This document shows positions 4,030-61,746 of a stretch of 62,079 nucleotides of DNA, one piece after another. Every line of letters starts with the position of its first letter. The first letter of the stretch is position 1. A model generated the notes under the pieces. It searched no databases. It was not told the origin of the DNA and was given only the letters and a program-made list of their open reading frames with translations. The position numbers and the translations under genes are program-made. Location: positions 1-62,079 of the forward strand of contig JAUCBJ010003609.1 in NCBI GenBank assembly GCA_032718475.1. The letters are read 5' to 3'. This DNA comes from Nemertoderma westbladi. Taxonomy: Eukaryota > Animalia > Xenacoelomorpha.

Positions 4030-4115
4030 ATTTAATATTTTTAATATTAATATAATTTAAAACACTGAATAATCTAATAGCAATAGTTTCTAAATTCTAA
4101 ATTTAGTTACTACAC

Positions 4116-23400: not shown

Positions 23401-23460
23401 AATGACAAATATTATTTAGATTATCTAAAAATAAAAAAAATAAAATGTTTGTTACAATAT

Positions 23461-25225: not shown

Positions 25226-25227
<2 letters not shown>

Positions 25228-25264
<37 letters not shown>

Positions 25265-25270
25265 ATATAT
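25228..25270. repeat. (TA)n microsatellite
   Basis: Direct reading. Confidence 0.95.
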
Positions 25271-28651: not shown

Positions 28652-31600
28652 CTAGAAAGCCTGTGGCCCTTCGGGCCACAGCTTTCTAGTGCACGTGCAG
28701 ATGATATATGAATATGTGTGGGAGATTTGAGAACTGCATACGGAACAGACACCATCATTAAATAAAACACCACCCCCATAAGAGATAACTGTCAAGTTTC
28801 AACTTTAGGCAGATTGTAAATAACAAAATTTCCAGAAAATGATCACTTTCAGATCCACCCTCTACCTGCGGACTGGTGAAATGCAGACGGCGCTGCAGTT
28901 TGGTAAAGATGGGGTTTATGGTGAAGTAAAATGCCTGCCTTTCAAGTTTCAGCTTAAACAGATTGTAAATAACAAAATTGGTGTTCACATTCAGACTTCT
29001 AGCGGTAGACTGAAGAACTGTAGACGACTATGGGACTCCGTAAAGATACAGAATATGCTGCAGTAGATTCCTGCCAAGTTTCAGCTCAAAGGGATTAAAA
29101 AGAACCAATTGGGATGAGGTGTTCACTATCAGACAATTCGCCCTCTAGCGGAAGATAGGGGAACTGTATACAACTCTGCGACTCCGTAAAGGTAGAGCCT
29201 ATGCTGTAGTAGATGCCTACCAAGTTTCAGTCTAAACCGTTTGTAAATAACAAAGTTGGAGAAGATGTTAATTTTCAGACATTTCACCCTCTAGCGGTAG
29301 ACTGGGGAAGTGTATAGGACTCTGCAACTCCGTAAAGATAGAGCCTAGGATGTAGTAGATACCTGCCAAGTTTCAGCTCAAAAGGATTAAAAAGAACCAA
29401 ATGGGATGAGGATTTCACTATCAGACAATTCGCCCTCTTGCGGCTGACTGTGGAACTGTAGACGACTCTACTACTCCGCAAAGATATAGCCTATGCTATA
29501 GTAGATGCCTACCAAGTTTCAGTCTAAAAGGTTTGTAAATAACAAAGTTGGAGAAGATGTTAACTTTCATACATTTCGCCCTCTAGCGGCAGACGCGGGT
29601 ACTGTAGACAACTCTGCGCGACTCAGTAAAGATATAGCCTATGCTGTAGTAGATGCCTACCAAGTTCAGTCTAAATGGATTATAAATAACAAAGTTGGAG
29701 AAGATGTTAACTTGCAGACATTTCGCCCTCTAGCGGTAGACTGGGAAATTGTAGACGATTCTGCGACTCAGTAAAGATTCAGCCTATGCTGTAGTAGATG
29801 CCTACCAAGTTTCAGTCAAAACGGATTGTAAATAATAAAGTTGGAGAAGATGTTATCTCTCAGACATTTAGCACTCTAACGGTAGACTGGGGAACTGTAG
29901 ACAACCCAGTGACTCCGGAAATATACAGCCTATGCTGCAGTATATAGCTACCAAGTTTCAGCTCAAAAGCATTAAAAACAACCCAATAAGATCAGGTTTT
30001 CACTATCGGATAATTCGCCCTCTAGCGGCAGACGGGGGAACTTCAGACGGCTCTGAGTATTACGTTGCAACGAGTTAGGGCGAGACCTATCTAACGAGCT
30101 ATAGTAAGCGAGATTTCATCGAGATTAGATGTATAATATTAGATAAAATAATAATACAGTAAGTATAGGCCTACAGAAATAATTATTTTACTTTTAATAT
30201 TCATAACAGTAAAACAAAAATGTTATAAACCTCTCCTTCCATGCAGCCAATGATTGAGAAAGCAGAATTACTCTGAGCAATTCGCAACAGACAACCAAAA
30301 CCCACCCCAATCAACACTCCAGCCTGCTTGCTCCTTATCAGTGCCCAGCCAGCTAGCTGCGAGTTCAATAATTACCTTAACGTTGCTATGATACAGAAAA
30401 CAATCCTTCCCTATTCAATAACTATAGGCCAATTCGATCCTGCTTGGCAAATATGACATATTTATACACTATTTGATTTTTAATCAATAAATAATCATAC
30501 ATATTTATATTAAACACCTGAATAAAATAAAAACTTTGTGAGAATGGGACACGGCGAATCTACCCATGTTAATTTTAGACCAGGTGGGATAAATGTTAGC
30601 CCTCTAAATAATTAATTACCGATAGAAGAACCGAAATAATTCGATGAATTTCGCCCGAAAATCACGAAAATTGCCCTCTAGCGGCAGACGGGCGAACTTC
30701 AGACGGCTCTGAGTATTACGTTGCAACGAGTTAGGGCTAGACCTTTCTAACGAGCTATAGCAAGCGAGATTTCATCGAGATGGGTTCGATTGTATAGCCG
30801 ATGACAAACACACAGACAGACTGACTGACTGACTGACTGACAGACAATCGATATTTATATATATTAGACTAGAAAGCCTGTGGCCCTTCGGGCCACAGCT
30901 TTCTAGTGCACATGCAGATGATATATGAATATGTGTGGGAGATTTGATAACTGCATACGGAACAGACACCATCATTAAATAAAACACCACCCCCATAAGA
31001 GATAACTGTCAAGTTTCAACTTTAGGCAGATTGTAAATAACAAAATTTCCAGAAAATGATCACTTTCAGATCCACCCTCCACCTGCGGACTGGTGAAATG
31101 CAGACGGCGCTGCAGTTTGGTAAAGATGGGGTTTATGGTGAAGTAAAATGCCTGCCTTTCAAGTTTCAGCTTAAACAGATTGTAAATAACAAAATTGGTG
31201 TAGATGTTCACATTCAGACATTTCACCCTCTAGCAGTAGACTGAAGAACTGTAGACGACTCTGTGACTCCGTAAAGATACAGAATATGCTGTAGTAGATT
31301 CCTGCCAAGTTCCAGCTCAATAGGATTAAAAAGAACCAAATGGGATGAGGTATTCACTATCAGATATTTCGCCCTCTAGCGGCAGATACGGACTGTATAG
31401 AACTCTGTGACTCCGTAAAGGTACAGCCTATGCTACAGTAGAAGCCTACCAAGTTTCAGTCTAAACCGTTAGTAAATAACAAAGTTGAAGAAGATGTTAA
31501 CTTTCAGACATTTTACCCTCTAGCGGTAGACTGGGGAAGTGAATAGGATTCTGCAACCCCGTAAAGATACAGCCTATGATGTAGTAGATACCAACCAAGT

Positions 31601-33605
31601 TTCAGCTCAAAATGATTAAAAAGAACCAAATGGGATGAGGTTTTCACTATCAGACAATTCGCCCTCTAGCGGCTGACTGTGGAACTGTAGATGACTCTAC
31701 TACTCCGCAAAGATATAGCCTATGCTATAGTAGATGCCTACCAAGTTTCAGTCTAAAAGGATTGTAAATAACAAAGTTGGAGGAGATGTTAACTTTCATA
31801 CATTTCGCCCTCTAGCGGCAGACGCGGGTAATGTAGACAACTCTGCGCGACTCAGTAAAGATATAGCCTATGCTGTAGTAGATGCCTACCAAGTTCAGTC
31901 TAAATGGATTATAAATAACAAAGTTGGAGAAGATGTTAACTTTCAGACATTTCGCCCTCTAGCGGTAGACTGGGGAATTGTAGACGACTCTGCGACTCAG
32001 TAAAGATACAGCCTTTGCTGTAGTAGATGCCTACCAAGTTTCAATCTAAACGGATTGTAAATAACAAAGTTGGAGAAGATGTTAACTCTCAGACATTTAG
32101 CCCTCTAACGGTAGACTGGGGAACTGTGGACAACTCCGGAAATATACTGGTGAAAACTCAGAGACTCCGGAAATATACAGCCTATGCTGCAGTATATAGC
32201 TACCAAGTTTCAGCACAAAAGCCTTAAAAACAACCCAATGAGATCAGGTTTTCATTATCGGACAATTCGCCCTCTAGCGGCAGACGGGGGAACTTCAGAC
32301 GGCTCTGAGTATTACGTTGCAACGAGTTAGGGCGAGACCTATCTAACGAGCTATAGTAAGCGAGATTTCATGGAGATTAGATGTATAATATTAGATAAAA
32401 TAATAATACAGTAAGTTAAGTATAGGCCTACAGAAATAATTATTTTACTTTTAATATTCATAACAGTAAAACAAAAATGTTATAACCCTCTCCTTCCATG
32501 CAGCCAATGATTGAGAAAGCAGAATTACTCTTGAGCAATTCGCTATAGACAACCCAAACCCACCCCAATCAACACTCCAGCCTGCTTGCTCCTTATCTGT
32601 GCCCAGCCAGCTAGCTGCGAGTTCAATAATTACCTTAACGTTGCTATGATACAGAAAAAAATCCTTCCCTATTCAATAAGAATAGGCCAATTCGATCGTG
32701 CTTGGCGAATATGACATATTTATACACTATTTGCTTTTTAATCAATAAATAATCATACATATTTATATTAAACACTCGAATAAAATAAAAACTTTGTGAG
32801 AATGGGACACGGCGAATCTACCCATGTTAATGTTATACCAGGTGGGATAAATGTTAGCCCTCTAAATCATTAATTACCGATAGAAGAACCGAAATAATTC
32901 GATAAATTTCGCCCGAAAATCACGAAAATTGCCCAGCGGCAGACGGGCGAACTTCCGACGGCTCTGAGTATTACGTTGCAACGAGTTAGGGCGAGACCTT
33001 TCTAACGAGCTATAGCAAGCGAGATTTCATCGAGATGGGTTCGATTGTATAGCCGATGACAAACACACAGACAGACAATCGATATTTATATATATAGAAG
33101 ACTAGAAAGCCTGTGGCCCTTCGGGCCACAGCTTTCTAATGCATGTGCAGATGATATATGAATATGTGTGGGAGATTGGAGAACTGCATACGGAACAGAC
33201 ACCATCATTAAATAAAACACCACCCCCATAAGAGATAACTGTCAAGTTTCAACTTTAGGCAGATTGTAAATAACAAAATTTCCAGAAAATGATCACTTTC
33301 AGATCCACCCTCTACCTGCGGACTGGTGAAATGCAGACGACGCTGCAGTTTGGTAAAGATGGGGTTTATGGTGAAGTAAAATGCCTGCCTTTCAAGTTTC
33401 AGCTTAAACAGATTGTAAATAACAAAATTGGTGTAGATGTTCACATTCAGACATTTCACCCTCTAGCGGTAGACTGAAGAACTGTAGACGAATCTGGGAC
33501 TCCGTAAAGATACAGAATATGCTGTAGTAGATTCCTGCCAAGTTCCAGCTCAATAGGATTAAAAAGAACCAAATGGGATGAGGTGTTCACTATCAGATAT
33601 GTCGC
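28652..33605 (-). repeat. Family A units (left block; ~2.2 kb each, ~146-bp internal monomer)
   Basis: Shared TGCACGTGCAGATGATATATG-type 3' flank and GATGCCTACCAAGTTTCAG monomers. The third unit is fused to family B at ~33605. Confidence 0.9.
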
Positions 33606-34693
33606 CAAGTATCAGCCTAAAAGCATTTTTAATAAATAAATGTGAGAATGTTTTCACTTTTCAGACATTTCGCACCCTCTAGCAGGATACTGGAGAACTG
33701 CAGACTGGTTAGCATCCGCCCCAAACACACAGCCTATGGTGTAGTATACCTTTCCCAAGTATAAAAAAAGCATTAGAAACAACGAAATGGGAGAAGGTTT
33801 TCATTTCAGACATTTCACCCTCTAGCGGCAGACTGAGGAATTGCAGATTGGTCAGAGTTCTCCACAAAAACGCAGTCTATGGTGTAGTACACCTCTGCAA
33901 AGTATCAGCATAAAAGCATTATTAATAACGAAATGGGTGAAGGTTTTCACTTTCAGACATTGCGCCCCCTAGTGGCAGACAGAGGAATTGCAGATTGGTC
34001 AGAGTTCTCCAAAAACACGCAGCCTATGGTGTAGTAGACCTCTGCAAAGTGTCAGCATAAAAGCATTATTAATAACGAAATGGGTGAAGGTTTTCACTTT
34101 CAGACATCGCGCCCCCTAGTGGCAGACAGAGGAATTGCAGATTGGTCAGAGTTCTCCCCAAACACGCTGTATGGTGTAGTAGACCTCTGCCAAGTATCAG
34201 CAAAAAAGCATTATAAACAAAGAAATGGGAAAAGGTTTTCACTTTCAGATATTTCGCCCCCTAGCGGCCGAATGGAGAACTGCAGGTAGTTGGGCGTCCT
34301 CCACAGACAAACACCATATGGTGTAATTCACATCTGCCAAGTGTCAGCCTAAAAGCGTTATTAATAACGAAATGGGATAAGGTTTTCACTTTCAGACATT
34401 TGGCCCCCTAGCGGTAGACTGGAGAAATGCATACTGATTCTAGCTCCTCCCCAAACACGCTGTATGGTGTAGTAGACCTCTGCCAAGTATCAGCAAAAAA
34501 GCATTATAAACAAAGAAATGGGATAAGGTTTTCACTTTCAGATATTTCTCCCCCTAGCGGCAGACTGGGGAATTGCAGATTGGTCAGCATCCTCCCCAAA
34601 CACACAGCCTATGGTGTAGAAGACCTCTGCCATGTATCAGCTAAAAGGCTTTAATAATAACGAAATGGGAGATGTTTTCAGTTTCGGATATTT

Positions 34694-34724
34694 CGCCCCC
34701 TAGCGGCAGACTGGAGAACTGCAG
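34694..34724 (-). promoter_or_regulatory. Representative full-length CTCF-like motif (repeated once per monomer across the array)
   Basis: Minus strand CTGCAGTTCTCCAGTCTGCCGCTAGGGGGCG matches the core CCASYAGRKGGCR plus the upstream TGCAG module. Binding is not demonstrated. Confidence 0.6.
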
Positions 34725-37700
34725 ATTGATCAGTGTCCTCCCAAACACACAGTCTATGATCGGGAACGTATCTGCAAAGTATCATTTAGAACAGATTGAG
34801 TCTGTTGGTGCAACCGCTTTTATAGAGTTTCCTCCTTGGTGACAAATTTGGCTGAAAATTTTTATGAAATAATAACCCAATTTGACCACAAATACGCATT
34901 CACGCATAAATAATGCATAAAATTAGCCTCGATATAACGACGTTTCGCGTCCATGTGCTCGGGGCAGTCTGCATCACTTAGATGCGCATGAAAAAGTAGC
35001 ATAATTGTCGAGACCCAACGTGTAGAGTGACAGAATGAACTGCTAGGCCTACTGCGCTACCGGTACCGAATTCACGAAATTTGCATTCACGCAAACAAAC
35101 GCGTAAAATAAGACTCGAGATAGCGACAGTGCACGTGCTCGTGACGAGAGCTTTCGTTCGATGTATCGCGAGCTCCGATTGGTGCTTGTGTGTAGAAACG
35201 TATAGCTTGGACAGACAAACAGACAGACAGACACATGATATTTATATATATAGACTAGAAAGCCCGTGGCCTTCGGCCACGGCTTTCTAGTTCACAAGCT
35301 TCTATAGATACAGTCAATCAATCAATGGACAATATCAAACATAAATAAATTAATTAATTAACTTAACAAAACTTTACATAAGACTAACAGACTGATTCCG
35401 ATTTAGTTGCAGCTACATACAATAATAAACATAAGGCTTTATGTTGTAGTAGATACCTACCAAGTAACACCTCCAATGGATTACAAATAATAAAATGGGA
35501 AAAGGTTTCAACTGTGTGTGATATTTTCCCCTTAGTGGAAAACTGTATAACTGCAGAGTAGTGGGTAGCGTCCTCGCAAACACAACCTACTGTATAGTGC
35601 AGTAGGTCACTGCAGCAACTCTATCGTATTAAAATAGAAGGTTTTAATTTCAGACATTTCGCCCCCTAGTGGCAGACTGCATAATTTTGCACTTGTTAGC
35701 GTCCTCCCCAAACACGAAGACTATGGTGTAGTAGTCCTCTGCCAAGTGCCAAGTATCAGCAAAAAAGCATTCATAAACAACAAAATTGTAGGTTTCCTCA
35801 TTCAGACATTTCATCCCCTAATAGCGGCAGACTGGGGAACTGTAGATTGGTCATCATCTCCCCAAATACACACCCTACGGTGTAGTATACTCTGCTTGGT
35901 ATCAGCAAAAAAAAATTATAAACATATTGTGTAAAGGACCTAAGTATCAGCTAAAAATCATTATTAATAACAAAATAGGATAAGATTTTCACTTTCAGAC
36001 ATTTCGCCTCCTAGTGGCAGACTGAAGAACCGCAAACTGGTCGGCGTCCTCCCAACACGCAGCTATGGTCAGGTAGAATTTCTTCTGCAAAGTGCCAGTT
36101 AGAACAGAGTGGTTACGATGATGCAATAACTGCTGTTATAATTTCCTGCTTGCTGACCTGTAATTTGTCCGATAACAAAACAACTGCAGAATAATGCAAT
36201 TTTACCTCCAATACACATTCAGGCAAGTATCAAGTAAATGTGTAAAAAATCAGCCTCGAGATAGCCTTTACAATTCATGTTCATGGGCTCAGGATGGTCT
36301 GCATCATATAGATGCACGCACCTCCAACTTGTAGGATGACGGACTGACGACCTGCTAGGCCTACCTCGCTAGCACCCATCCCGTACATTGCAAAAAGGAA
36401 TAATTGAATCATTTTGTGTTTATGATTATAAACATGTGAACTGAAAAAAGCTAATCTAAGATTTACTGCTGGTTCTTACCAATGTAAGTCAAGAACCAAT
36501 CACAGTAGTTCCACTCCGCTCTCCTGCTGGGTCCTATTTATTTATTGAGATTACTACTTAACCAACCCAGCCTGCCTGCAGGCCACCTCAAGATATGATT
36601 GGTCTGCAAGTAGCTAGCTGCCTTTCTAACTAACTCTCAGCTTTGCCAGGCCTGTACTACCAAAAGGAATATTCGAATCACATTGAGATTTTGTCACACA
36701 ACATGTTGCAGCGAATACAAAATACGCATTCACGCAAGCATAAGCGTAAAATTAGCCTCGAGATAGCGATAGTTTACGTGCTCAGGACGAGACCTTTCGA
36801 TCGATGTATCATTTGCTCAGATTGGTACATGTGTGTCGGAGCGTATAGCTTGGACAGACTCACAGACTCACAGACAGACAATGCATATTTATATATATAA
36901 ACTAGAAAGCCCGTGGCCCTTCGGGCCACGGCTTTCTAGTTCACAAGCCTATTCACCATTCCAAACATTAGATTAATTAATTAACTTAACTTATAACAAA
37001 ACGTCACATGATTGAGTGTTCTCTCAAACAAAAGGACTGAAGCTGTTTTACTTTTCAAATATCTACATACTACGTACAACTTAAGGCTTAGGTTGTATAA
37101 AGTAGATAAATACCTGCCAAGTATCATTTCCAAAGGATAACAAATAGTAAAAATATGGAAGAAGGTTAAACTGTAGAACTGCAGGTGGTTATCATCCTCG
37201 TAAACACAACCTATAGTTTATTTAGTTTAGTAGGTACTGTACAGTACTTTTAGATCGCTGCCAAGAATAAACTCTAAAGAATTTAAATGGGAGAAGGATT
37301 TCACTTTCAGACAATTCGTCCCCTAGTGGCGGACTGGAGAACCGCAGACTGGTCAACGTCCTTCCCAAAGACGCAGCTTATGATGTACAGTACAGTAGAC
37401 CTCTGCCAAGTATCAGCCTAAAAGCATTTTTAATAAATAAATGTGAGAATGTTTTCACTTTTCAGACATTTCGCACCCTCTAGCAGGGTACTGGAGAACT
37501 GCAGACTGGTTAGCATCCGCCCCAAACACACAGCCTATGGTGTAGTATACCTTTCCCAAGTATAAAAAAAGCATTAGAAACAACGAAATGGGAGAAGGTT
37601 TTCATTTCAGACATTTCACCCTCTAGCGGCAGACTGAGGAATTGCAGATTGGTCAGAGTTCTCCACAAAAACGCAGTCTATGGTGTAGTACACCTCTGCA

Positions 37701-39010
37701 AAGTATCAGCATAAAAGCATTATTAATAACGAAATGGGTGAAGGTTTTCACTTTCAGACATTGCGCCCCCTAGTGGCAGACAGAGGAATTGCAGATTGGT
37801 CAGAGTTCTCCAAAAACACGCAGCCTATGGTGTAGTAGACCTCTGCAAAGTGTCAGCATAAAAGCATTATTAATAACGAAATGGGTGAAGGTTTTCACTT
37901 TCAGACATCGCGCCCCCTAGTGGCAGACAGAGGAATTGCAGATTGGTCAGAGTTCTCCCCAAACACGCTGTATGGTGTAGTAGACCTCTGACAAGTATCA
38001 GCAAAAAAGCATTATAAACAAAGAAATGGGATAAGGTTTTCACTTTCAGATATTTCGCCCCCTAGCGGCCGAATGGAGAACTGCAGGTAGTTGGGCGTCC
38101 TCTACAGACAAACACCATATGGTGTAATTCACATCTGCCAAGTGTCAGCCTAAAAGCGTTATTAATAACGAAATGGGATAAGGTTTTCACTTTCAGACAT
38201 TTGGCCCCCTAGCGGTAGACTGGAGAAATGCATACTGATTCTAGCTCCTCCCCAAACACGCTGTATGGTGTAGTAGACCTCTGCCAAGTATCAGCAAAAA
38301 AGCATTATAAACAAAGAAATGGGATAAGGTTTTCACTTTCAGATATTTCTCCCCCTAGCGGCAGACTGGGGAATTGCAGATTGGTCAGCATCCTCCCCAA
38401 ACACACAGCCTATGGTGTAGAAGACCTCTGCCATGTATCAGCTAAAAGGCTTTAATAATAACGAAATGGGAGATGTTTTCAGTTTCGGATATTTCGCCCC
38501 CTAGCGGCAGACTGGATAACTGCAGATTGATCAGTGTCCTCCCAAACACACAGTCTATGATCGGGAACGTATCTGCAAAGTATCATTTAGAACAGATTGA
38601 GTCTGTTGGTGCAACCGCTTTTATAGAGTTTCCTCCTTGGTGACAAATTTGGCTGAAAATTTTTATGAAATAATAACCCAATTTGACCACAAATACGCAT
38701 TCACGCATAAATAATGCATAAAATTAGCCTCGATATAACGACGTTTCACGTTCATGTGGTCGGGGCAGTCTGCATCACTTAGATGCGCATGAAAAAGTAG
38801 CATAATTGTCGAGACCCAACGTGTAGAGTGACAGAATGAACTGCTAGGCCTACTGCGCTACCGGTACCGAATTCACGAAATTTGCATTCACGCAAACAAA
38901 CGCGTAAAATAAGACTCGAGATAGCGACAGTGCACGTGCTCGTGACGAGAGCTTTCGTTCGATGTATCGCGAGCTCCGATTGGTGCTTGTGTGTAGAAAC
39001 GTATAGCTTG

Positions 39011-39042
<32 letters not shown>

Positions 39043-39292
39043 CATGATATTTATATATATAGACTAGAAAGCCAGTGGCCCTTCGGGCCACGGCTTTCTA
39101 GTTCACAAGCCTATTCACCATTCCAAACATTAATTCTGTAATTAATTAATTAACTTAACTTAACAAAACGTCACATGATTGAGTGTTCTCTCAAACAAAA
39201 GTACTGAAGCAATTTTACTACAAACTACTATGTACAACATAAGGCTTGTTGTATAGTAAATGCCTACCAAGTATCATTTCCAAAGGATTACA

Positions 39293-39797
39293 CGAAGTGG
39301 GGACTTCGCGCAGCACGAAGTTGGCAGAGCCTTAGCGAATTGACACTGTTAGGGGGTAGGTCAATTTATGCAAATAGTCACGTTGGCCCTCTAGCGGCAG
39401 ACTGGAGAACTGCAGATGGATTCGCCTCCTTTGAAAGTCACAGCTAATGGTCTAATACATATCTGCCAAGTTTCAGCTTAAACGGATTAAAAGCAAAGAA
39501 ATGGGAGGGCATTTAATGTTTAGACATGTGGCCCTCTAGCGGGAGACCATTGCACTGATGGTGTCTGAAAGTCTCTCAAAAATCTCAACTTTTGCTCATA
39601 TTGATACCTACAAATTTTCAACTTGGCAGCTTTAAATCCGACAAAGTTATTAGCATGTCAAAATCGTAACGACGACGACGACGACGACGACGACAACGAC
39701 GACGACGACGACGACGACAACTATTTGCATAAATTGACCCACCCCCTAACAGTGTCAATTCGCTAAGGCTCCGCCAACTTCGTGGCTCGCCCCACAA
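39293..39797. mobile_element. Helentron/DINE-1-like (HINE) insertion
   Basis: Absent from the sister unit (compare GGATTACAAAATAGT at ~42097). It has ~65-bp subterminal inverted repeats (39314-39378 / 39720-39784), a terminal ACTTCG..CGAAGT stem-loop and a (GAC)n microsatellite, and sits in an A/T run with no clear TSD. Confidence 0.7.
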
Positions 39798-41811: not shown

Positions 41812-41843
<32 letters not shown>

Positions 41844-44800: not shown

Positions 44801-47800
44801 CCAAAGACGCAGCTTATGATGTAGTACAGTAGACCTCTGCCAAGTATCAGCCTAAAAGCATTTTTAATAAATAAATGAGAGAATGTTTTCACTTTTCAGA
44901 CATTTCGCACCCTCTAGCAGTATACTGGAGAACTGCAGACTGGTTAGCATCCGCCCCAAACACACAGCCTATGGTGTAGTATACCTTTCCCAAGTATAAA
45001 AAAAAAGCATTAGAAAAAACGAAATGGGAGAAGGTATTCATTTCAGACATTTCACCCTCTAGTGGTAAGACTGTGGAATTGCAGATTTGTCAGAGTTCTC
45101 CACAAAAACGCAGTCTAGGGGGTAGTAGACCTCTGCAAAGTATCAGCATAAAAGCATTATTAATAACGAAATGGGTGAAGGTTTTCACTTTCAGACATTT
45201 CGCCCCCTAGTGGCAGACAGAGGAATTGCAGATTGGTCAGAGTACTCCACAAACACGCAGCCTATGGTGTAGTAGACCTCTGCCAAGTATCAGCCTATAA
45301 GTACTATAAACAACGAAATGGGATAAGGTTTTCACTTTTAGATATTTCGCCCCCTAGCGGCCGAATGGAGAACTGCAGGTAGTTGGGCGTCCTCCACAGA
45401 CACACACCATATGGTGTAATACACATCTGCCAAGTGTCAGCCTAAAAGCATTATTAATAACAAAATGGGATAAGGTTTTCACTTTCAGACATTTGGCCCC
45501 CTAGTGGCAGACAGAGGAATTGCAGATTGGTCAGAGTTCTCCACAAACACGCAGCCTAGGGTGTAGTAGACCTCTGCCAAGTATCAGCCTATAAGTATTA
45601 TAAACAACGAAATGGGATAAGGTTTTCACTTTCAGATATTTCGCCCCCTAGCGGCTGAATGGAGAACTGCAGGTTGTTGGGCGTCCTCCACAGACACTCA
45701 CCAAATGGTGTAATACACATCTGCCAAGTGTCAGCCTAAAAGCATTATTAATAACGAAATGTGATAAGGTTTTCACTTTCAGACATTTGGCCCCCTAGCG
45801 GTAGACTGGAGAAATGCAGACTGATTCTAGCTCCTCCCCAAACACGCTGTATGGTGTAGTAGACCTCTGCCAAGTATCAGCAAAAAAGCATTATAAACAA
45901 AGAAATGGGATAAGGTTTTCACTTTCAGATATTTCTCCCCCTTGCGGCAGACTGGGGAATTGCAGATTGGTCAGCATCCTCCCCAAACACACAGCCTATG
46001 GTGTAGAAGACCTCTGCCATGTATCAGCTAAAAGGCTTTAATAATAACGAAATGGGAGATGTTTTAAGTTTCGGATATTTCGCCCCCTAGCGGCAGACTG
46101 GAGAACTGCAGATTGATCAGTGTCCTCCCAAACACACAGTCTATGGTCGGGAACAGATCTACAAAGTATCATTTAGAACAGATTAAGTCTGGTATCAAAA
46201 AGTAGCATAATAGTCGGACCTAACATGTATAGTGACAGAATGAACTGCTAGGCCTAACTGCGCTACCGGTACCAAATTCACGAAATCTGCATTCACGCAA
46301 ACAAACGCGTAAAATAAGACTCGAGATAGCGACAGTGCACGTGCTCGTGACGAGAGCTTTCGTTCGATGTATCGCGAGCTCCGATTGGTGCTTGTGTGTA
46401 GAAACGTATAGCTTGGACAGACAAGCAGACAGACAGACAGACAGACAGACAGACACATGATATTTATATATATAGATAATAGAAAGCCAGTGGCCCTTCG
46501 GGCCACGGCTTTCTAGTTCACAAGCCTATTCACCATTCCAAACATCAATTAATTAATTAACTTAACAAAACTTCATATGATTGAGAGTGTTCTCTCAAAC
46601 AAAAGGACTGATGCTGTTTTACTTTTCAGATATCTACACTGGTCAACGTCCTTCACATTGATGCAGCCTTATGATGTAGTACAGTAGACCTCTGACAATT
46701 ATCAGCGTAAAAGCATTTTTAATAAATAAATGTGAGAATGTTTTTACTTTTCAGATTCAGATTTATCGCACCCTAGCAGTAGACTGGAAATCCGGAGACT
46801 GGTTAGCGTCCTCCCCATACAAACAGCCTATGGTCATCATGCCTTTCCCAAGTATAAGCAAAAAAGCATTAGAAACAACGAAAGGGGAGAAGAATTTCAC
46901 TTGAGACATTTCACCCTCTAGCGGCTGACTGAGAAATTGCAGATTGGTCAGAGTTTTTCACAAACGCGCAGTCTATGGTGTAGTAGACCTCTGACAAGTA
47001 TCAGCCTAAAAGCATTAGAAACAACGAAACGGGATAAGGTTTTCACTTTCAGACATTTCGCCCCTTAGCGGCCGAATGGAGAACTGCAGTTTGTTCGGCA
47101 TCTTACCTAGACACACACCCTATGGTGTACTACACATCTGGCAAGTGTCAGCCTGAAATCATATTAATAACGAATTGGGATAAGGTTTTCACTTTCAGAC
47201 ATTTGGCCCCCAAGCGGTAGACTGGATAAATGCAGACTGGTTCTATCTTCTCCCCAAACACACAGTCTATGTTGTAGTAGACCTCTGCCAAGTATCAGCA
47301 AAAATGCATTATAAACAATGAAATGCATAAAGGTTTTCACTTTCAAACATTGCGCCCCCTAGCGGCAGACAGAGCTATTGCAGATTGGTCTTAGTTCTCC
47401 ACAAACACGCAGTCTTTGATGTAGTAGACCTCTGACAAGTATCAGCCTAAAAACATTATAAACATCAAAATGGGATAAGGTTTTCACGTTCAGACATTTC
47501 GCCCCCTAGCGGCCAAATAGAGAACTGCAGGTTGTTCCTCGTCCTCTTCAGACACACAGCCTATGGTGTAATACACATCTGCCAAGTGTCAGCCTAAAAG
47601 CATTATTAATAACGAAATGGTATAAGGTTTTCACTTTCAGACATTAGGCCCCCTAGTGGCAGACAGAGGAATTGCAGATTGGTCAGAGTTCTCCACAAAC
47701 ACGCAGCCTATGGTGTAGTAGACCTCTGCCAAGTACCAGGCTATAAGAATTATAAACAACGAAATGGGATAAGGTTTTCACTTTCAGATATTTCGCCCCT

Positions 47801-49549
47801 TAGTGGCCGAATGGAGAACTACAGGTAGTTGGGCGTCCTCCACAGACACACACCATATGGTGTAATACACATCTGCCCAGTGTCAGCCTAAAAGCATTAT
47901 AAACAACGAAACGGGATAAGGTTTTCACTTTCAGACATTTCGCCCCCTAGCGGCCGAATGGAGAACTGCAGTTTGTTCGGCGTCTTACCTAGACACACAC
48001 CCTATGTTGTACTTCACATCTGGCAAGTGTCAGCCTGAAATCATATTATTAACGAAATGGGATAAGGTTTTCACTTTCAGCCATTTGGCCCCCAAGCGGT
48101 AGACTGGATAAATGCAGACTGGTTCTAGCTCCTCCCCAAACACACAGTCTATGGTGTAGTAGACCTCTGCCAAGTATCAGCAAAAAAGCATTATAAACAA
48201 TGAAATGCATAAAGGTTTTCACTTTCAGACATTGCGCCCCCTAGCGGCAGACAGAGCTATTGCAGATTGGTCTTAGTTCTCCACAAACACGCAGTCTTTG
48301 ATGTAGTAGACCTCCGACAAGTATCAGCCTAAAAACATTATAAACATCAAAATGGGATAAGGTTTTCACGTTCAGACATTTCGCCCCCCAGCGGCCGAAT
48401 AGAGAACTGCAGGTTGTTCGGCGTCCTCTCCAGACACACACCCTATGGTGTAATACACATCTGCCATGTGTCAGCCTAAAAGCATTATTAATAACGAAAT
48501 GGGATAAGGTTTTCACTTTCAGACATTTGGCCCCCTAGCGGTAGACTGGAGAAATGCAGACTGGTTTTAGCTCCTCCCCAAACAGGCAGTCTTGGTGTAG
48601 TAGACCTCTGCCAAGTATCAGCAAAAAAGCAGTATAAACAACGAAATGGGTGAAGGTTTTCACTTTCAGACATTGCGCCTCCTACCGGCAGACAGAGGAA
48701 TTTCAGATTATTCAGAGTTCTCTACAAACACGCAGTCTATGGTGTAGTCGACTTCTGCCAAGTATCAGCAAAAAAGCATTATAAACAACGAAATTGGATA
48801 AGGTTTTCACTTTCAGATATTTCGCCCCCTAGCGGCAGACTGGGGAATTGCAGATTAGTCAGTATCCTCCAAAACACACAGCCTATGGTATAGTAGACCT
48901 CTGCCACGTATAAGCTAAAAGGCATTAATAATAACGAAATGGGAGAAGGTTTTCAGTTTCTGACATTTCGCCCCCTAGCGGCAGACTGGAGAACTGCAGA
49001 TTGATCAGTGTCTTCCCAAACACACAGTCTATGGTCAGGAACGTATCTGCAAAGTATCATTTAGAACAGATTGAGTCTGTTGGTGCAACCGCTGTTATAG
49101 AGTTCCCTGCTGGTTGACAAATTTGGCTGAAAATTGTTATGGAATAATAGCGCAATTTGACCACAAATAACCATTCACACATAAATGATGCATAAAATTC
49201 GCCTCGATATAACGACGTTTCGCGTCCATGTGCTCAGGGCAGTCTGCATCACGTAGATGCGCATCAAAAAGTAGCATAATAGTCGAGACCCAACATGTAG
49301 AGTGACAGAATGAACTGCTAGGCCTACTGCGCTACCGGTACCAAATTCACGAAATCTGCATTCACGCAAACAAACGCGTAAAATAAGACTCGAGATAGCG
49401 ACAGTGCACGTGCTCGTGACGAGAGCTTTCGTTCGATGTATCGCGAGCTCAGATTGGTGCTTGTGTGTAGAAACGTATAGCTTGGACAGACAAACAAACA
49501 AACAGACAGACAGACAGACAGACACATGATATTTATATATATAGATATA

Positions 49550-52500
49550 CTAGAAAGCCTGTGGCCCTTCGGGCCACAGCTTTCTAGTGCACGTGCAGAT
49601 GATATATGAATATGTGTGGAAGATTTGAGAACTGCATACGGAACAGACACCATAATTAAATAAAACACCACCCCCATACGAGATAACTGTCAAGTTTCAA
49701 CTTTAGGCAGATTGTAATTAACAAAATTTCCAAAAATTATCACTTTCAGATCCACCCTCTACCTGCGGACTGGTGAAATGCAGACGGCGCTGCAGTTTGG
49801 TAAAGATGGGGTTTATGGTGAAGTAAAATGCCTGCCTTTCAAGTTTCAGCTTAAACAGATTGTAAATAACAAAATTGGTGTAGATGTTCACATTCAGACA
49901 TTTCACCCTCTAGCGGTTGACTGAAGAACTGTAGACGACTCTGGGACTCCGTAAAGATACAGAATATGCTGTAGTAGATTCCTGCCAAGTTTCAGCTCAA
50001 AAGGATTAAAAAGAACCAATTGGGATGAGGTGTTCACTATCAGACATTTCGCCCTATAGCGGCAGATGGGGGAACTCTATACAACTCTGCGACTCCGTAA
50101 AGGTACAGCCTATGCTGTAGTAGATGCCTACCAAGTTTCAGTCTAAACCGTTTGTAAATAACAAAGTTGGAGAAGATGTTAACTTTCAGACATTTCACCC
50201 TCTAGCGGTAGACTGGGGAAGTGTATAGGACTCTGCAACTCCGTAAAGATACAGCCAATGAGTAGATACCTGTCAAGTTTCAGCTCAAAATGATTAAAAA
50301 GAACCAAATGGGATGAGGTTTTCACTATCAGACAATTCGCCCTCTTGCGGCTGACTGTGGAACTGTAGACGACTCTACTACTCCGCAAAGATATAGCCTA
50401 TGCTATAGTAGATGCCTACCAAGTTTCAGTCTAAAAGGTTTGTAAATAACAAAGTTGGAGAAGATGTTACCTTTCATACATTTCGCCCTCTAGCGGCAGA
50501 CGCGGGTACTGTAGACAACTCTGCGCGACTCAGTAAAGATATAGCCTATGCTGTAGTAGATGCCTACCAAGTTCAGTCTAAATGGATTATAAATAACAAA
50601 GTTGGAGAAGATGTTAACTTGCAGACATTTCGCCCTCTAGCGGTAGACTGGGAAATTGTAGACGACTCTGCGACTCAGTAAAGATTCAGCCTATGCTGTA
50701 GTAGATGCCTACCAAGTTTCAGTCAAAACGGATTGTAAATAATAAAGTTGGAGAAGATGTTAACTCTCAGACATTTAGCCCTCTAACGGTAGACTGGGGA
50801 ACTGTAGACAACCCAGTGACTCCGGAAATATACAGCCTATGCTGCAGTATATAGCTACCAAGTTTCAGCTCAAAAGCATTAAAAACAACCCAAATAAGAT
50901 CAGGTTTTCACTATCGGATAATTCGCCCTCTAGCGGCAGACGGGCGAACTTCAGACGGCTCTGAGTATTACGTTGCAACGAGTTAGGGCGAGACCTTTCT
51001 AACGAGATATAGCAAGCGAGATTTCATCGAGATGGGTTCGATTGTATAGCCGATGACAAACACACAGACAGACTGACTGACTGACAGACAATCGATATTT
51101 ATATATATTAGACTAGAAAGCCTGTGGCCCTTCGGGCCACAGCTTTCTAGTGCACGTGCAGATGATATATGAATATGTGTGGGAGATTGGAGAACTGCAT
51201 ACGGAACAGACACCATCATTAAATAAAACACCATCCCCCTAAGAGATAACTGTCAAGTTTCAACTTTAGGCAGATTGTAAATAACAAAATTTCCAGAAAA
51301 TGATCACTTTCAGATCCACCCTCTACCTGCGGACTGGTGAAATGCAGACGGCGCTGCAGTTTGGTAAAGATGGGGTTTATGGTGAAGTAAAATGCCTGCC
51401 TTTCAAGTTTCAGCTTAAACAGATTGTAAATAACAAAATTGGTGTAGATGTTCACATTCAGACATTTCCCCTCTAGCGGTAGACTGAAGAACTGTAGACG
51501 ACTCTAGGACTCCGTAAAGATACAGAATATGCTGTAGTAGATTCCTGCCAAGTTCCAGCTCAATAGGATTAAAAAGAACCAAATGGGATGAGGTGTTCAC
51601 TATCAGATATTTCGCCCTCTAGTGGCAGATGGGGGGACTGTATACAACTCTGCGACTTCGTAAAGGTACAGCCTATGCTGTAGTAGATGCCTACCAAGTT
51701 TCAGTCTAAACCGTTAGTAAATAACAAAGTTGGAGAAGATGTTAACTTTCAGACATTTCACCCTCTAGCGGTAGACTGGGGAAGTGAATAGGATTCTGCA
51801 ACCCCGTAAAGATACAGCCTATGATGTAGTAGATACCAACCAAGTTTCAGCTCAAAATGATTAAAAAGAACCAAATGGGATGAGGTTTTCACTATCAGAC
51901 AATTCGCCCTCTAGCGGCTGACTGTGGAACTGTAGACGACTCTACTACTCCGCAAAGATATAGCCTATGCTATAGTAGATGCCTACCAAGTTTCAGTCTA
52001 AAAGGTTTGTAAATAACAAAGTTGGAGAAGATGTTAACTTTCATACATTTCGCCCTCTAGCGGCAGACGCGGGTACTGTAGACAACTCTGCGCGACTCAG
52101 TAAAGATATAGCCTATGCTGTAGTAGATGCCTACCAAGTTCAGTCTAAATGGATTATAAATAACAAAGTTGGAGAAGATGTTAACTTGCAGACATTTCGC
52201 CCTCTAGCGGTAGACTGGGAAATTGTAGACGACTCTGCGACTCAGTAAAGATTCAGCCTATGCTGTAGTAGATGCCTACCAAGTTTCAGTCAAAACGGAT
52301 TGTAAATAATAAAGTTGGAGAAGATGTTAACTCTCAGACATTTAGCCCTCTAACGGTAGACTGGGGAACTGTAGACAACCCAGTGACTCCGGAAATATAC
52401 AGCCTATGCTGCAGTATTTAGCTACCACGTTTCATCTCAAAAGCATTAAAAACAACCCTATAAGATCAGGTTTTCACTATCGGATAATTCGCCCTCTAGC

Positions 52501-55500
52501 GGCAGACGGTGGAACTTCAGACGGCTCTGAGTATTACGTTGCAACGAGTTAGGGCGAGACCTATCTAACGAGCTATAGTAAGCGAGATTTCATCGAGATT
52601 AGATGTATAATATTAGATAAAATAATAATACAGTAAGTATAGGCCTACAGAAATAATTATTTTACTTTTAATATTCATAACAGTAAAACAAAAATGTTAT
52701 AAACCTCTCCTTCCATGCAGCCAATGATTGTGAAAGCAGAATTACTCTGACCAATTCGCAACAGACAACCCAAACCCACCCCAATCAACACTCCAGCCTG
52801 CTTGCTCCTTATCTGTGCCCAGCCAGCTAGCTGCGAGTTCAATAATTACCTTAACGTTGCTATGATACAGAAAACAATCCTTCCCTATTCAATAACTATA
52901 GGCCAATTCGATCCTGCTTGGCGAATATGACATATTTATACACTATTTGATTTTTAATCAATAAATAATCATACATATTTATATTAAACACTCGAATAAA
53001 ATAAAAACTTTGTGAGAATGGGACACGGCGAATCTACCCATGTTAATTTTAAACCAGGTGGGATAAATGTTAGCCCTCTAAATCATTAATTACCGATAGA
53101 AGAACCGAAATAATTCGATAAATTTCGCCCGAAAATCACGAAAATCGCCCTCTAGCGGCAGACGGGCGAACTTCAGACGGCTCTGAGTATTACGTTGCAA
53201 CGAGTTAGGGCGAGACCTTTCTAACGAGATATAGCAAGCGAGATTTCATCGAGATGGGTTCGATTGTATAGCCGATGACAAACACACAGACAGACAATCG
53301 ATATTTATATATATAGACTAGAAAGCCTGTGGCCCTTCGGGCCACAGCTTTCTAGTGCACGTGCAGATGATATATGAATATGTGTGGAAGATTTGAGAAC
53401 TGCATACGGAACAGACACCATCATTAAATAAAACACCACCCCCATAAGAGATAACTGTCAAGTTTCAACTTTAGGCAGATTGTAAATAACAAAATTTCCA
53501 GAAAATGATCACTTTCAGATCCACCCTCTACCTGCGGACTGGTGAAATGCAGACGGCGCTGCAGTTTGGTAAAGATGGGGTTTATGGTGAAGTAAAATGC
53601 CTGCCTTTCAAGTTTCAGCTTAAACAGATTGTAAATAACAAAATTGGTGTAGATGTTCACATTCAGACATTTCACCCTCTAGCGGTAGACTGAAGAACTG
53701 TAGACGACTCTGGGACTCCGTAAAGATACAGAATATGCTGTAGTACAGTAGATTCCTGCCAAGTTCCAGCTCAATAGGATTAAAAAGAACCAAATGGGAT
53801 GGGTGTTCACTATCAGATATGTCGCCCTCTAGCGGCAGATGGGGGGACTGTATACAACTCTGTGACTCCGTAAAGGTACAGCCTATGCTGTAGTAGATGC
53901 CTACCAAGTTTCAGTCTAAACCGTTAGTAAATAACAAAGTTGGAGAAGATGTTAACTTTCAGACATTTCACCCTCTAGCGGTAGACTGGGGAAGTGAATA
54001 GGATTCTGCAACCCCGTAAAGATACAGCCTATGATGTAGTAGATACCAACCAAGTTTCAGCTCAAAATGATTAAAAAGAACCAAATGGGATGAGGTATTC
54101 ACTATCAGAAAATTCGCCCTCTAGCGGCTGACTGTGGAACTGTAGACGACTCTACTACTCCGCAAAGATATAGCCTATGCTATAGTAGATGCCTACCAAG
54201 TTTCAGTCTAAAAGGATTGTAAATAACAAAGTTGGAGGAGATGTTAACTTTCATACATTTCGCCCTCTAGCGGCAGACGCGGGTAATGTAGACAACTCTG
54301 CGCGACTCAGTAAAGATATAGCCTATGCTGTAGTAGATGCCTACCAAGTTCAGTCTAAATGGATTATAAATAACAAAGTTGGAGAAGATGTTAACTTTCA
54401 GACATTTCGCCCTCTAGCGGTAGACTGGGGAATTGTAGACCTCTCTGCCACTCAGTAAAGATACAGCCTATGCTGCAGTATATAGCTACCAAGTTTCAGC
54501 TCAAAAGCATTAAAAACAACCCAATGAGATCAGGTTTTCACTATCGGACAATTCGCCCTCTAGCGGTAGATGGGGGAACTTCAGACGGCTCTGAGTATTA
54601 CGTTGCAACGAGTTAGGGCGAGACCTATCTAACGAGCTATAGTAAGCGAGATTTCATCGAGATTAGATGTATAATATTAGATAAAATAATAATACAGTAA
54701 GTATAGGCCTACATAAATAATTATTTTACTTTTAATATTCATAACAGTAAAACAAAAATGTTATAAACCTCTCCATCCATGCAGCCAATGATTGAGAAAG
54801 CAGAATTACACTTGAGCAGTTCGCAACAGACAACCCAAACCCACCCCAATCACACACTACAGCCTGGCTTGCTCCTTATCTGTGCCCAGCTAGCTGCGAT
54901 TTCAATAATTACCTTAACGTTGCTATGATACAGAAAAAAATCCTTCCCTATTCACTACAGCATAATACAGCATAGGCCAATTCGATCCTGCTTGGCGAAT
55001 ATGACATATTTATACACTATTTGATTTTTAATCAATAAATAATCATACATATTTATATTAAACACTCGAATAAAATAAAAACTTTGTGAGAATGGGACAC
55101 GGCGAATCTATTCATGTTAATTTTATACCAGATGGGATAAATGTTACCCCTCTAAATCATTAATTACCGATAGAAGAACCGAAATAATTCGATAAATTTC
55201 GCCCGAAAATCACGAAAATCGCCCTCTAGCGGCAGACGGGCGAACTTCAGACGGCTCTGAGTATTACGTTGCAACGAGTTAGGGCGAGACCTTTCTAACG
55301 AGATATAGCAAGCGAGATTTCATCGAGATGGGTTCAATTGTATAGCCGATGACAAACACACAGACAATCGATATTTATATATATTAGATATAGACTAGAA
55401 AGCCTGTGGCCCTTCGGGCCACAGCTTTCTAGTGCACGTGCAGTGCAGATGATATATGAATATGTGTTTGAGATTTGAGAACTGCATACGGAACAGACAC

Positions 55501-58237
55501 CATCATTAAATAAAACGCCACCGCCATAAGAGATAACTGTCAAGTTTCAACTTTAGGCAGATTGTAAATAACAAAATTTCCAGAAAAATGATCACTTTCA
55601 GATCCACCCTCTACCTGCGGACTGGTGAAATGCAGACGGCGCTGCAGTTTGGTAAAGATGGGGTTTATGGTGAAGTAAAATGCCTGCCTTTCAAGTTTCC
55701 GCTTAAACAGATTGTAAATAACAAAATTGGTGTAGATGTTTACATTCAGACATTTCACCCTCTAGCGGTAGACTGCAGAACTGTAGATGACTCTGGGGCT
55801 CCGTAAAGATACAGAATATGCTGTAGTAGATTCCTGCCAAGTTCCAGCTCAATAGGATTAAAAAGAACCAAATAGGATGAGGTGTTCACTATCAGATATT
55901 TCGCCCTCTAGCGGCATATGGGGGGGGGGACTGTATACAACTCTGCGACTCCGTAAAGGTACAGCCTATGCTGTAGTAGATGCCTACCAATTTTCAGCTC
56001 AAAATGATTAAAAAGAACCAAATGGGATGAGGTTTTCACTATCAGACAATTCGCCCTCTAGCGGCTGACTGTGGAACTGTAGACGACTCTACTACTCCGC
56101 AAAGATATAGCCTATGCTATAGTAGATGCCTACCAAGATTCAGTCTAAAAGGATTGTAAATAACAAAGTTGGAGGAGATGTTAACTTTCATACATTTCGC
56201 CCTCTAGCGGCAGACGCGGGTAATGTAGACAACTCTGCGGGACTCAGTAAAGATATGGCCTATGCTGTAGTAGATGCCTACCAAGTTCAGTCTAAATGGA
56301 TTATAAATAACAAAGTTGGAGAAGATGTTAACTTTCAGACATTTCGCCCTCTAGCGGTAGACTGGGGAATTGTAGACGACTCTACTACTCCGCAAAGATA
56401 TAGCCTATGCTATAGTAGATGCCTACCAAGTTCCAGTATAAACGGATTGTAAATAACAAAGTTGGAGAAGATGTTAACTCTCAGACATTTCACCCTCTAG
56501 CGGTAGACTGGGGAAGTGAATAGGATTCTGCAACCCCGTAAAGATACAGCCTATGATGTAGTAGATACCAACCAAGTTTCAGCTCAAAATGATTAAAAAG
56601 AACCAAATGGGATGAGGTTTTCACTATCAGACAATTCGCCCTCTAGCGGCTGACTGTGGAACTGTAGATGACTCTACTACTCCGCAAAGATATAGCCTAT
56701 GATATAGTAGATGCCTACCAAGTTCAGTCTAAACGGATTATAAATAACAAAGTTGGAGAAGATGTTAACTTTCAGACATTTCGCCCTCTAGCGGCAGACG
56801 CGGGTACTGTAGACGACTCTGCGACTCAGTAAAGATACAACCTATGCTGTAGTAGATGCCTACCAAGTTTCAGTCTAAACGGATTGTAAATAACAAAGTT
56901 GGAGAAGATGTTAACTCTCAGACATTTAGCCCTCTAACGGTAGACTGGGGAACTGTAGACAACTCAGTGACTCCGGAAATATACAGCCTATGCTGCAGTA
57001 TATAGCTACAGAGTTTCAACTCAAAAGCATTAAAAACAACCCAATGAGATCAGGTTTTCAATATCGGACAATTCGCCCTCTAGCGGCAGACGGGGGAACT
57101 TCAGACGGCTCTGAGTATTACGTTGCAATGAGTTAGGGCGAGACCTATCTAACGAGCTATAGTAAGCGAGATTTCATCGAGATTAGATGTATAATATTAG
57201 ATAAAATAATAATACAGTAAGTATAGGCCTACAGAAATAATAATTATTTTACTTTTAATACCGGTATTCATAACAGTAAAACAAAAATGTTATAAACCTC
57301 TCCTTCCATGCAGCCAATGATTGAGAAAGCAGAATTAATTACTCTTGAGCAATTCGCAATAGACAACCCAAACCCACCCCAATCAACACTCCAGCCTGCT
57401 TGCTCCTTATCTGTGCCCAGCCAGCTAGCTGCGAGTTCAATAATTACCTAACGTTGCTATGATACAGAAAACAATCCTTCCCTATTCAATAGCAATAGGC
57501 CAATTCGATCGTGCTTGGCGAATATGACATATTTATACACTATTTGATTTTTAATCAATAAATAATCATACATATTTATATTAAACACTCGAATAAAATA
57601 AAAACTTTGTGAGAATGGGACACGGCGAATCTACCCATGTTAATTTTATACCAGGTGGGATAAATGTTAGCCTTCTAAATCATTAATTACCGATAGAAGA
57701 ACATAAATAATTCGATAAATTTCGCCCGAAAATCAAGAAAATCGCCCTCTAGCGGCAGACGGGCGAACTTCAGACGGCTCTGAGTATTACGTTGCAACGA
57801 GTTAGGGCGAGACCTTTCTAACGAGCTATAGCAAGCGAGATTTCATCGAGATGGGTTCGATTGTATAGCTGATGACAAACAGACAGACAGACAGACAATC
57901 GATATTTATATATATTAGACTAGAAAGCCTGTGGCCCTTCGGGCCACAGCTTTCTAGTGCACGTGCAGATGATATATGAATATGTGTGGGAGATTGGAGA
58001 ACTGCATACGGAACAGACACCATCATTAAATAAAACACCACCCCCATAAGAGATAACTGTCAAGTTTCAACTTTAGTCAGATTGTAAATAACAAAATTTC
58101 CAGAAAATGATCACTTTCAGATCCACCCTCTACCTGCGGACTGGTGAAATGCAGACGGCGCTGCAGTTTGGTAAAGGTGGGGTTTATGGTGAAGTAAAAT
58201 GCCTGCCTTTCAAGTTTCAGCTTAAACAGATTGTAAA
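49550..58237 (-). repeat. Family A units (right block; 1563, 2205, 2077, 2525 bp and a truncated copy)
   Basis: Same ends and monomers as 28652-33605. Confidence 0.9.
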
Positions 58238-61660: not shown

Positions 61661-61746
61661 TAATTACTAGGCTAGTAGTTAATACTGAGTTACTAGACTT
61701 GCTCAGACTGTAATACGGCAGTAGACATTCAACTGTACACATAAGC

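Follow-up and report, generated by a model that had tools for sequence, protein, structure and literature searches.

Within the window, by which we mean the whole 62,079-nt stretch of DNA analysed, lies a stack of Helitron-type elements [Table 1] that all share one orientation and one plan: a 5' TC, a microsatellite, central repeats of about 146 bp and a hairpin ending in CTAG. The assignment of the motif array to a Helitron-type carrier, already made in the preliminary description, is supported by both termini. TC followed by a TA run, in some cases after 2-6 extra bases, was found at 12 of the 13 intact 5' ends, E4 starting with TT and E14, at the outermost 5' end of the stack, being truncated. 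At the opposite end the hairpin, which folds as DNA at -17 to -19 kcal/mol in three ends, closes on CTAG in 13 of the 14 elements and on CTAT in E9, and a T directly follows the 3' end in all 14. In family A the 3' ends contain a 12-bp inverted match, AT-rich and interrupted by one mismatch, of which E5-E9 have none; the ends read TC/CTAG. The array (28652-58237) has no open reading frame above 131 aa. E3 is a chimera: its 5' part is of family B, sharing 99% identity with E5 along 1659 nt, its 3' part is of family A, and the two are fused inside a monomer near 33600. Of the ten motifs of E1, one is found at some 185 nt from the 5' end, outside the tandem array. An origin of the stack as a single rolling-circle concatemer was rejected on three counts: the presence of three families, differences of 3-18% between copies within a family, and extra bases or a TT start at 6 of 13 junctions.

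Table 1. Features of the window, in order of position
Feature	Position	Strand	Basis
Lone related monomer in a separate repeat beyond the stack (74% to consensus; carries TGCAGTTCC; core degenerate)	17102..17202	+	
Fourteen non-autonomous Helitron-type elements stacked head to tail	28652..58237	-	14 terminal hairpins, termini, junctions
E1 3' terminus, near-perfect hairpin ending in CTAG, then host T	28652..28690	-	DNA fold, junction list
E1, family A, 10 motifs	28652..30868	-	
E2, family A, 9 motifs, 94% identity to E1	30869..33101	-	
E3, A/B chimera, 10 motifs	33102..35254	-	
Complete two-part site, given as an example: TGCAGTTCT and GCCGCTAGGGGGCG, separated by a 7-nt spacer	34694..34723	-	
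E4, family C, 4 degenerate motifs	35255..36901	-	
E5-E9 (starts 36902, 39064, 41869, 44323, 46479), family B, 9-16 motifs each, upstream module TGCAG/TGCAA	36902..49549	-	
HINE-like element nested in E6	39292..39795	-	
E10-E13 (starts 49550, 51113, 53318, 55395), family A, 9-12 motifs each, upstream module TACAG or weaker	49550..57919	-	
E14, a 318-nt member of family A truncated at its 5' side, with a single degenerate motif	57920..58237	-	

No host gene could be recognised at the locus, and no Pfam family scored above cut-off in nine ORFs. A flanking Gypsy-type pol matches arthropod and sponge proteins, among its best named matches, at 50-57%, and the flanking gag had no match in the protein search. 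The CpG observed/expected ratio of 0.7-1.0 makes the host look non-vertebrate. One contig of the X1 run departs from the flank at exactly 28651, so that the insertion of the array may be polymorphic.

A hand count had put the co-oriented motifs at about 120, and this figure holds up well: a loose anchor returned 134 matches, two of them spurious and dropped, leaving 132 motif-bearing units (62 in family A, 64 in B, 4 in C and 2 in the nested element), all facing the same way. The pattern GCC(G/A)CTAG(A/G)GGGCG, first described as near-universal, is matched exactly 49 times, always on the minus strand and inside 28652-58237, rising to 83 and 104 matches with one or two mismatches; across the whole window, none at up to two mismatches falls on the plus strand or outside this interval. 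Near-universality applies to the core rather than to the exact pattern, which 49 of the 132 units contain: with profiles that exclude the motif, a core was missing nearby from just 5 of 116 matches to the left half and 3 of 120 to the right half, and few core-less monomers can therefore have been missed. The proposed 146-147-bp spacing is likewise right locally, 91 of the 131 gaps between motifs measuring 145-148 bp and 111 of them 131 to 174 bp, but the motifs are split over 14 separate elements with 1-16 each and do not form one continuous array.

The likeness to CTCF sites was assessed with a core matrix from zebrafish ChIP (PMC7182764 Data S1), which penalises T at position 6, so that it under-scores the sites of the window. 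At p<1e-4 this matrix matched 61 times on the minus and 17 times on the plus strand, against a mean of 7.2 (maximum 14, both strands) in 50 dinucleotide shuffles. The stricter p<1e-5 left 12 matches on the minus strand and none on the plus strand, against 0.72. The p<1e-4 threshold was reached by 58 of the 132 anchored units, and 89 contain the 11-bp IUPAC core. The core of family B agrees letter for letter with that of the chicken HS4 CTCF site; CCGCTAGGGGGC, the 12-mer of HS4 in an oligonucleotide of PMC12885311, is present in 24 units, and the IL3-type CCACTAGGGGG occurs 9 times. An averaged matrix for the upstream module was positive at one single gap in 116 of the 132 units, whereas none of the remaining gaps between 0 and 30 gave more than 29 positive units; the 12 nt that separate the end of TGCAG from the CC of the core equal the distance in the IL3 +2.9 insulator oligonucleotide (PMC12885311), which bears out the suggestion that the module stands at about the spacing read by CTCF zinc fingers 9-11. 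The comparison with shuffled monomers proposed earlier favours the match: the two-part score of the consensus monomer was reached by none of 3000 shuffles and none of 1000 column-permuted matrices, with an analytic p of about 2e-5 for each monomer. All monomers of the window share one ancestor, and the match therefore represents one or few independent events.

These data support a non-chance, two-part CTCF-type match, as predicted from sequence, with its two parts spaced as in a vertebrate site for which binding is experimentally known. To call the motifs full-length, as was done at first, overstates the case, an intact 11-bp core together with TGCAG/TGCAA being found in 34 of the 132 units, about a quarter. 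The module described 12 nt upstream is found as TGCAR in 47 of 64 family-B units, but in none of the 62 of family A, where the G of TGCAG is lost and the sequence reads TACAG or weaker. The 3'-terminal C, typical of sites bound by invertebrate CTCF according to section 7 of bioRxiv 2026.10.19.759930, is present in 16 of the 132 units. We note that the upstream motif is reported to lack enrichment at Drosophila sites, and that echinoderm CTCF has lost two fingers.

The motif block had been placed among the most conserved parts of the monomer, which proves correct for its core but not for its upstream module. The core shows 0.92 changes per column against 1.97 among 18 monomer types (Mann-Whitney p=0.007), with p=0.03 over 96 monomers, whereas the upstream 9-mer is no more conserved than the remainder of the monomer (p=0.68 and 0.30). 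Ranked among 146 windows of the monomer, the core comes fourth (tied) over the 18 types and 16th over the 96 monomers; TACTACACCATA and TCTGAAAGTGAA are conserved equally or better. The six near-invariant CTCF positions accumulated 2 changes over the 18 types (0.33 per column vs 1.9 overall), a figure equally low in 4 of 146 circular shifts, and the degenerate purine positions of the CTCF motif vary among monomer types. The core is also conserved between families whose monomers share 67% identity. A neighbouring conserved block, GAAAGTGAAA (43 occurrences), is IRF/Blimp-like.

The monomer is common to the stacked elements and to two further element types of the window, the HINE-like element and a third repeat [Table 1]. 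The former has the features of a HINE/Helentron, namely a T-run target, a (GTC)n microsatellite, a 3' palindrome and 65-bp subterminal inverted repeats (39314-39378 and 39720-39784, 96.9% identity), arms that are longer than the published 11-15 bp. It contains two monomers about 73% like family B with a core in each, and E7 represents its empty site, with no target duplication. Outside the window, depth over the element end was about 1,400-6,700 times that of unique flank in three runs, a ratio that is not itself a copy number and that suggests thousands of copies genome-wide. In independent runs the best supported of the loose ends listed are diverged contigs, 16-27 in each run, whose alignment is confined to the core-bearing block at 29563-29594 and whose further sequence reads TGCAGTTCT on the motif strand. 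A metagenome scan (6 of 64 parts; 127 loci, some overlapping on one contig) recovered from animal-like contigs largely unrelated repeats of about 146 bp with an identical core, whose period peaks at 144-148 bp, a range that takes in 169 of 213 exact pairs when 132-162 bp is allowed. These repeats have no blastn similarity to the window monomers and give short profile matches only, nearly all starting at the motif; 124 of the 127 loci belong to one monomer superfamily, and about four independent families are present overall. The scan selected for the motif and is therefore uninformative on its conservation. The upstream module was not found in these monomers, no gap of 4 to 13 giving more than 13 positives out of 726, and the tandem-motif pattern had no match in viral contigs.

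Among the titles listed in searches of the open-access literature, none dealt with CTCF motifs in the central repeats of Helitrons. Helitrons have been tied to chromatin architecture in Xenopus tropicalis sperm, where Helitron-marked supersized loops (Shi et al. 2023) reportedly have anchors without CTCF. Dense clusters of one factor's motif also occur in the HSE-bearing Helitrons of Caenorhabditis, which contribute a large share of the HSEs in the genome, eight copies holding more than 100 (PMC6927752); there the factor is HSF-1 and binding was established by ChIP, whereas the motif of the stacked elements is of CTCF type, occurs once in each 146-bp monomer and is predicted from sequence. DNA transposons bound by CTCF in ChIP and spreading its two-part sites include TDR13B, DNA25TWA1 and others in zebrafish, where they are non-autonomous (PMC7182764), and hAT-Tip100 in lamprey (PMC5504073); these hosts are vertebrates, the available portions of both papers describe no tandem arrays with one site per monomer, and the word Helitron is absent from the zebrafish supplement. 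HINE/DINE-1 elements, including the oyster Cg_HINEs, share with the window elements a 5' microsatellite, central repeats (of 140-180 bp), a 3' palindrome and conserved boxes common to diverged monomers, as described in PMC4067079 and PMC7492417; the stacked elements differ from them in having canonical TC and CTAG ends in place of TT targets, and only the nested element clearly fits HINE. Helraiser/Helibat and Heli1Xen1 (PMC4778049, PMC12001565) resemble the stack in their 5' TC, TA-rich left end, 3' hairpin with CTAG, tandem arrays and perhaps A|T target, but their hairpin ends 11 nt before CTAG whereas here it reaches CTAG directly, and the stack, unlike them, mixes three families.

The reading we favour, tentatively and at a little under even confidence, is that the CTCF-type motif in each 146-bp repeat of this gene-less Helitron-type stack is likely bound by the host CTCF and likely kept for the accessibility of the element. 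An ancestral monomer would have acquired a CTCF site and been multiplied as the central repeat, and the elements, presumably mobilised in trans by a RepHel transposase, would have entered resident copies time and again at their TA-rich 5' end, so that one fixed orientation would result. Because 146 bp cannot fit a nucleosome and CTCF in every unit, CTCF would sit on only some units, where it may serve the element by organising nucleosomes or forming a local barrier in chromatin, and not as a directional loop-extrusion stop. These high-copy elements have likely spread very many CTCF-type sites, and thousands of copies would provide the host with a large store of them; the CTCF sink envisaged earlier is accordingly plausible in terms of copy number, which looks high enough by read depth. 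Any benefit of the motif to the element is purely inferred.

Alternatively, a real CTCF site captured once in the founding monomer may have been copied along as a neutral passenger, unselected, decaying and perhaps bound. Such a history would agree with an upstream module that is unconserved and degraded in family A, and with the rank of the core over 96 monomers, other blocks being equally conserved; it appears somewhat unlikely in that the core survives in monomers of A, B, C and HINE type, which share 67-73% identity, and recurs at about the same period in repeats without blastn similarity to those of the window. That the block is bound by another protein, either the element transposase or a different host zinc-finger factor, with a coincidental likeness to CTCF sites, we regard as unlikely: the absence of the terminal C from most units and the resemblance of neighbouring conserved blocks such as GAAAGTGAAA to motifs of other factors are suggestive of it, but the two parts match at the exact known distance, the monomer is common to elements with different termini, and, in the case of the transposase, the cleavage determinants of Helraiser lie within the terminal 40 bp (PMC4778049).

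More doubtful still is the loop-extrusion barrier proposed at the outset, in which the 30-kb co-oriented array would serve the host as a functional directional boundary. All 132 motifs face the same way, the strongest insulation in vertebrate assays comes from sites that have the upstream module, and amphioxus boundaries show a slight convergent bias of just over 52%. Co-orientation, however, follows from tandem repeats and head-to-tail stacking with no need for insulator function, and the host looks non-vertebrate; echinoderm boundaries have no motif orientation pattern, invertebrate CTCF orthologs did not form TADs, and according to two papers CTCF of invertebrates does not form barriers that depend on orientation. 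The locus, moreover, lacks a recognisable host gene and its insertion is perhaps polymorphic. Selection of the monomer as a nucleosome-length mechanical or positioning unit with an incidental motif is highly improbable: its 146-147-bp period and the 10-bp-periodic barriers ascribed to C. elegans Helitron minisatellites in bioRxiv 2026.08.08.743475 would fit, but 10-bp WW periodicity was found in none of 19 consensus sequences and AA/TT periodicity in one (p<0.05).

A bolder extension of our preferred reading, which we think rather doubtful, is that the repeat of about 146 bp with one CTCF site is a recurrent, element-selected rolling-circle cargo across invertebrates, swapped between Helitrons and Helentrons. 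This host would then hold tens of thousands of bound sites, many in the two-part form thought to be vertebrate-specific, and Helitrons would be a main author of its CTCF landscape. Family A alone, at thousands of copies with about 10 motifs each, would approach a whole vertebrate set of CTCF sites, the zebrafish set comprising 36,540 peaks (PMC7182764). The finding touches on two open questions, the role of CTCF outside vertebrates and the time of origin of the upstream readout by zinc fingers 9-11. The full upstream modules of family B and the weakened ones of family A form natural pairs with roughly ten sites per copy, which, together with possibly filled and empty alleles, make both questions directly testable; the same system would put to the test the idea that transposons recruit CTCF to their own advantage.

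The interval that carries the candidate CTCF motifs consists of 14 head-to-tail elements (E1 to E14) of three families, A, B and C, each opened on the plus strand by a shared hairpin [Table]. On the minus strand, every element reads from a TC and a TA run through a microsatellite of (TGTC)n, a 5' region particular to its family and an array of ~146-bp repeats (monomers) to a near-perfect 3' hairpin terminating in CTAG. A TC 5' end and a hairpin-CTAG 3' end are canonical Helitron termini (PMC4778049, PMC12001565), in agreement with the carrier proposed in the preliminary description, and no ORF longer than 131 aa was found within the array; judged by their termini, the elements are thus assigned to the non-autonomous Helitrons. 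Their microsatellite and central repeats recall those of HINE/DINE-1 elements (PMC4067079, PMC7492417).

Features of the window
Feature	Position	Strand	Remarks
Gypsy-type LTR retrotransposon	1-4056	minus	extends past window start; gag (368 aa) and pol (at least 1029 aa) open in different frames
34-bp satellite	4427-14395		~10 kb, 93% match
Low-complexity open frame	14700-16445	minus	581 codons, four 15-aa repeats; reads towards the satellite; no Pfam match
Long diverged inverted repeat pair	~17060-17330 / 18560-18810		left arm contains the lone CTCF-type monomer
Single related monomer	17102-17202		within a third repeat
Short tandem array	21469-22006		162-bp period, in decayed repeats
E1-E14, left to right	28652-58237	minus	A, A, A/B chimera, C, B x5, A x4, truncated A
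Family-A spacers	30030-30690, 52500-53160, 54565-55235, 57085-57760		650-670 bp each, flanked on both sides by a copy of the motif-bearing 5' segment; absent from E10
E3 chimera breakpoint	~33600		GCC common to family-A core start and family-B monomer
GAAAGTGAAA (example)	33940-33955	minus	directly 3' of core in family-B monomers
HINE-like nested element	39292-39795		inside E6
Short tandem array	59737-60294		287-bp period, in decayed repeats
Gag-like or coiled-coil open frame	61747-62079	plus	begins here, runs past window end

The unit of the 34-bp satellite contains no stops, which is the sole reason why several of its frames run open through thousands of codons. Elsewhere, TAGGCCTA (12 copies) and ACCGGT (15 copies) recur in ~18 kb (14400-28651 and 58238-62079), possibly as a lineage signature.

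Motif-bearing units number 132, 49 of them fitting exactly the minus-strand pattern proposed earlier. Scored with zebrafish ChIP-derived matrices (PMC7182764 supplement) at p<1e-4, the array yielded 61 matches on the minus strand and 17 on the plus strand, where shuffles gave 7.2; at p<1e-5 the two strands yielded 12 and 0, where shuffles gave 0.72. For the upstream matrix there is a single peak gap, in 116 of the 132 units, at which the end of TGCAG lies 12 nt ahead of the CC, the same distance as in the IL3 +2.9 oligo printed in PMC12885311; the HS4 core, from an oligo printed there as well, equals the family-B core. By our own alignment, the sites would fall in the 5-bp spacer class, reported to be stronger in vitro (bioRxiv 2026.01.05.696797), the spacer being spanned by ZF8 in the structure (PMC10484683). 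The two-part score of the consensus monomer exceeded 3000 of 3000 shuffles (p ~2e-5 per monomer), which counts as one test rather than 132 because all monomers share one ancestor. At the level of sequence, the candidate motif has the attributes of a CTCF site and is probably truly CTCF-derived or CTCF-selected. The array is real and above chance, and was somewhat overstated as ~120 full-length motifs: core and TGCAR upstream module are intact together in 34 of the 132 units, and the term fails for the remainder, including every family-A unit.

The claim that the motif block is among the most conserved parts holds for the core, which varies less than the remaining monomer (p=0.007 across 18 types; p=0.03 across 96 internal monomers, 36 edge units being left out), with two other blocks conserved equally well; it does not extend to the upstream 9-mer, for which this comparison found no constraint. 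GAAAGTGAAA, with 43 copies, all on the motif strand, falls in the best-conserved window across the 96 monomers and resembles the IRF/Blimp-1 consensus. The terminal C linked to invertebrate CTCF (bioRxiv 2026.10.19.759930) was found in 16 of 132 units.

A T directly follows the 3' end of all 14 elements, and junctions between them are an exact CTAG|TC in 7 of 13 cases, the other six having 2-6 extra bases or a TT start. These inexact junctions, the 3-18% divergence between copies of one family and the 67% identity of A and B monomers argue against a single concatemer. We infer instead that elements inserted repeatedly into the TA-rich 5' ends of copies already present, and this would suffice to explain the uniform facing of all motifs. 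Two related monomers in the HINE-like element, whose empty site is seen in E7, and the one in the third repeat indicate that the monomer moves between carriers.

Across the initial 200 bases of E1, summed depth was 27,000-129,000 against ~19 on the unique flank (three contig runs, two samples; a fourth run did not cover that flank), a measure of depth rather than copy number that we read only as thousands of copies. One contig tracks the flank until exactly 28651, diverges from there on and may be an empty allele; the best supported among the loose ends shown are diverged contigs aligning over the core-bearing block alone. A motif-selected metagenome scan without control, which required two cores at a distance of 132-162 bp, gave 127 loci (~1500 stretches estimated), and exact core pairs had a 144-148-bp period in 169 of 213 cases. 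All but three loci (124) form one superfamily, alignable to the window monomers only by short matches at the motif, in which the upstream module was not found. Of the 127 loci, 12 have, upstream on the motif strand, a short 5' block that is also present in families B and C, and none has it on the other strand. An exon-like stretch in one locus (L074), recognised by eye as an LDL-receptor class A repeat, suggests animal DNA. Another (L023, 2263 bp) is a distinct repeat whose strongly diverged units hold several CTCF-like cores, some in closely spaced inverted pairs, one a GGTGG variant and several with the terminal C.

The array, whose CTCF status is read from its sequence, would work similarly to the Caenorhabditis Helitrons that carry HSEs (PMC6927752) and to DNA transposons bound by CTCF in zebrafish and lamprey; no title in the literature searched describes one CTCF site per Helitron central repeat. 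That the repeat reflects its own mechanics is very improbable, the 10-bp periodicity looked for being absent. Service to a factor other than CTCF is unlikely, and carriage of the motif as a neutral passenger, without benefit, is a somewhat better but still doubtful candidate.

CpG o/e values of 0.7-1.0 and relatives of the flanking Gypsy-type element point to an invertebrate host. A directional loop-extrusion barrier is quite improbable there: echinoderm boundaries have no CTCF orientation pattern and echinoderm CTCF has lost two fingers (PMC13317027), invertebrate orthologs reportedly did not form TADs, and the convergent bias in amphioxus is only slight (PMC10013865). These findings lead us to prefer a local role, and we tentatively propose that putative CTCF binding would make the array a local barrier or nucleosome organiser, to the advantage of the element itself.
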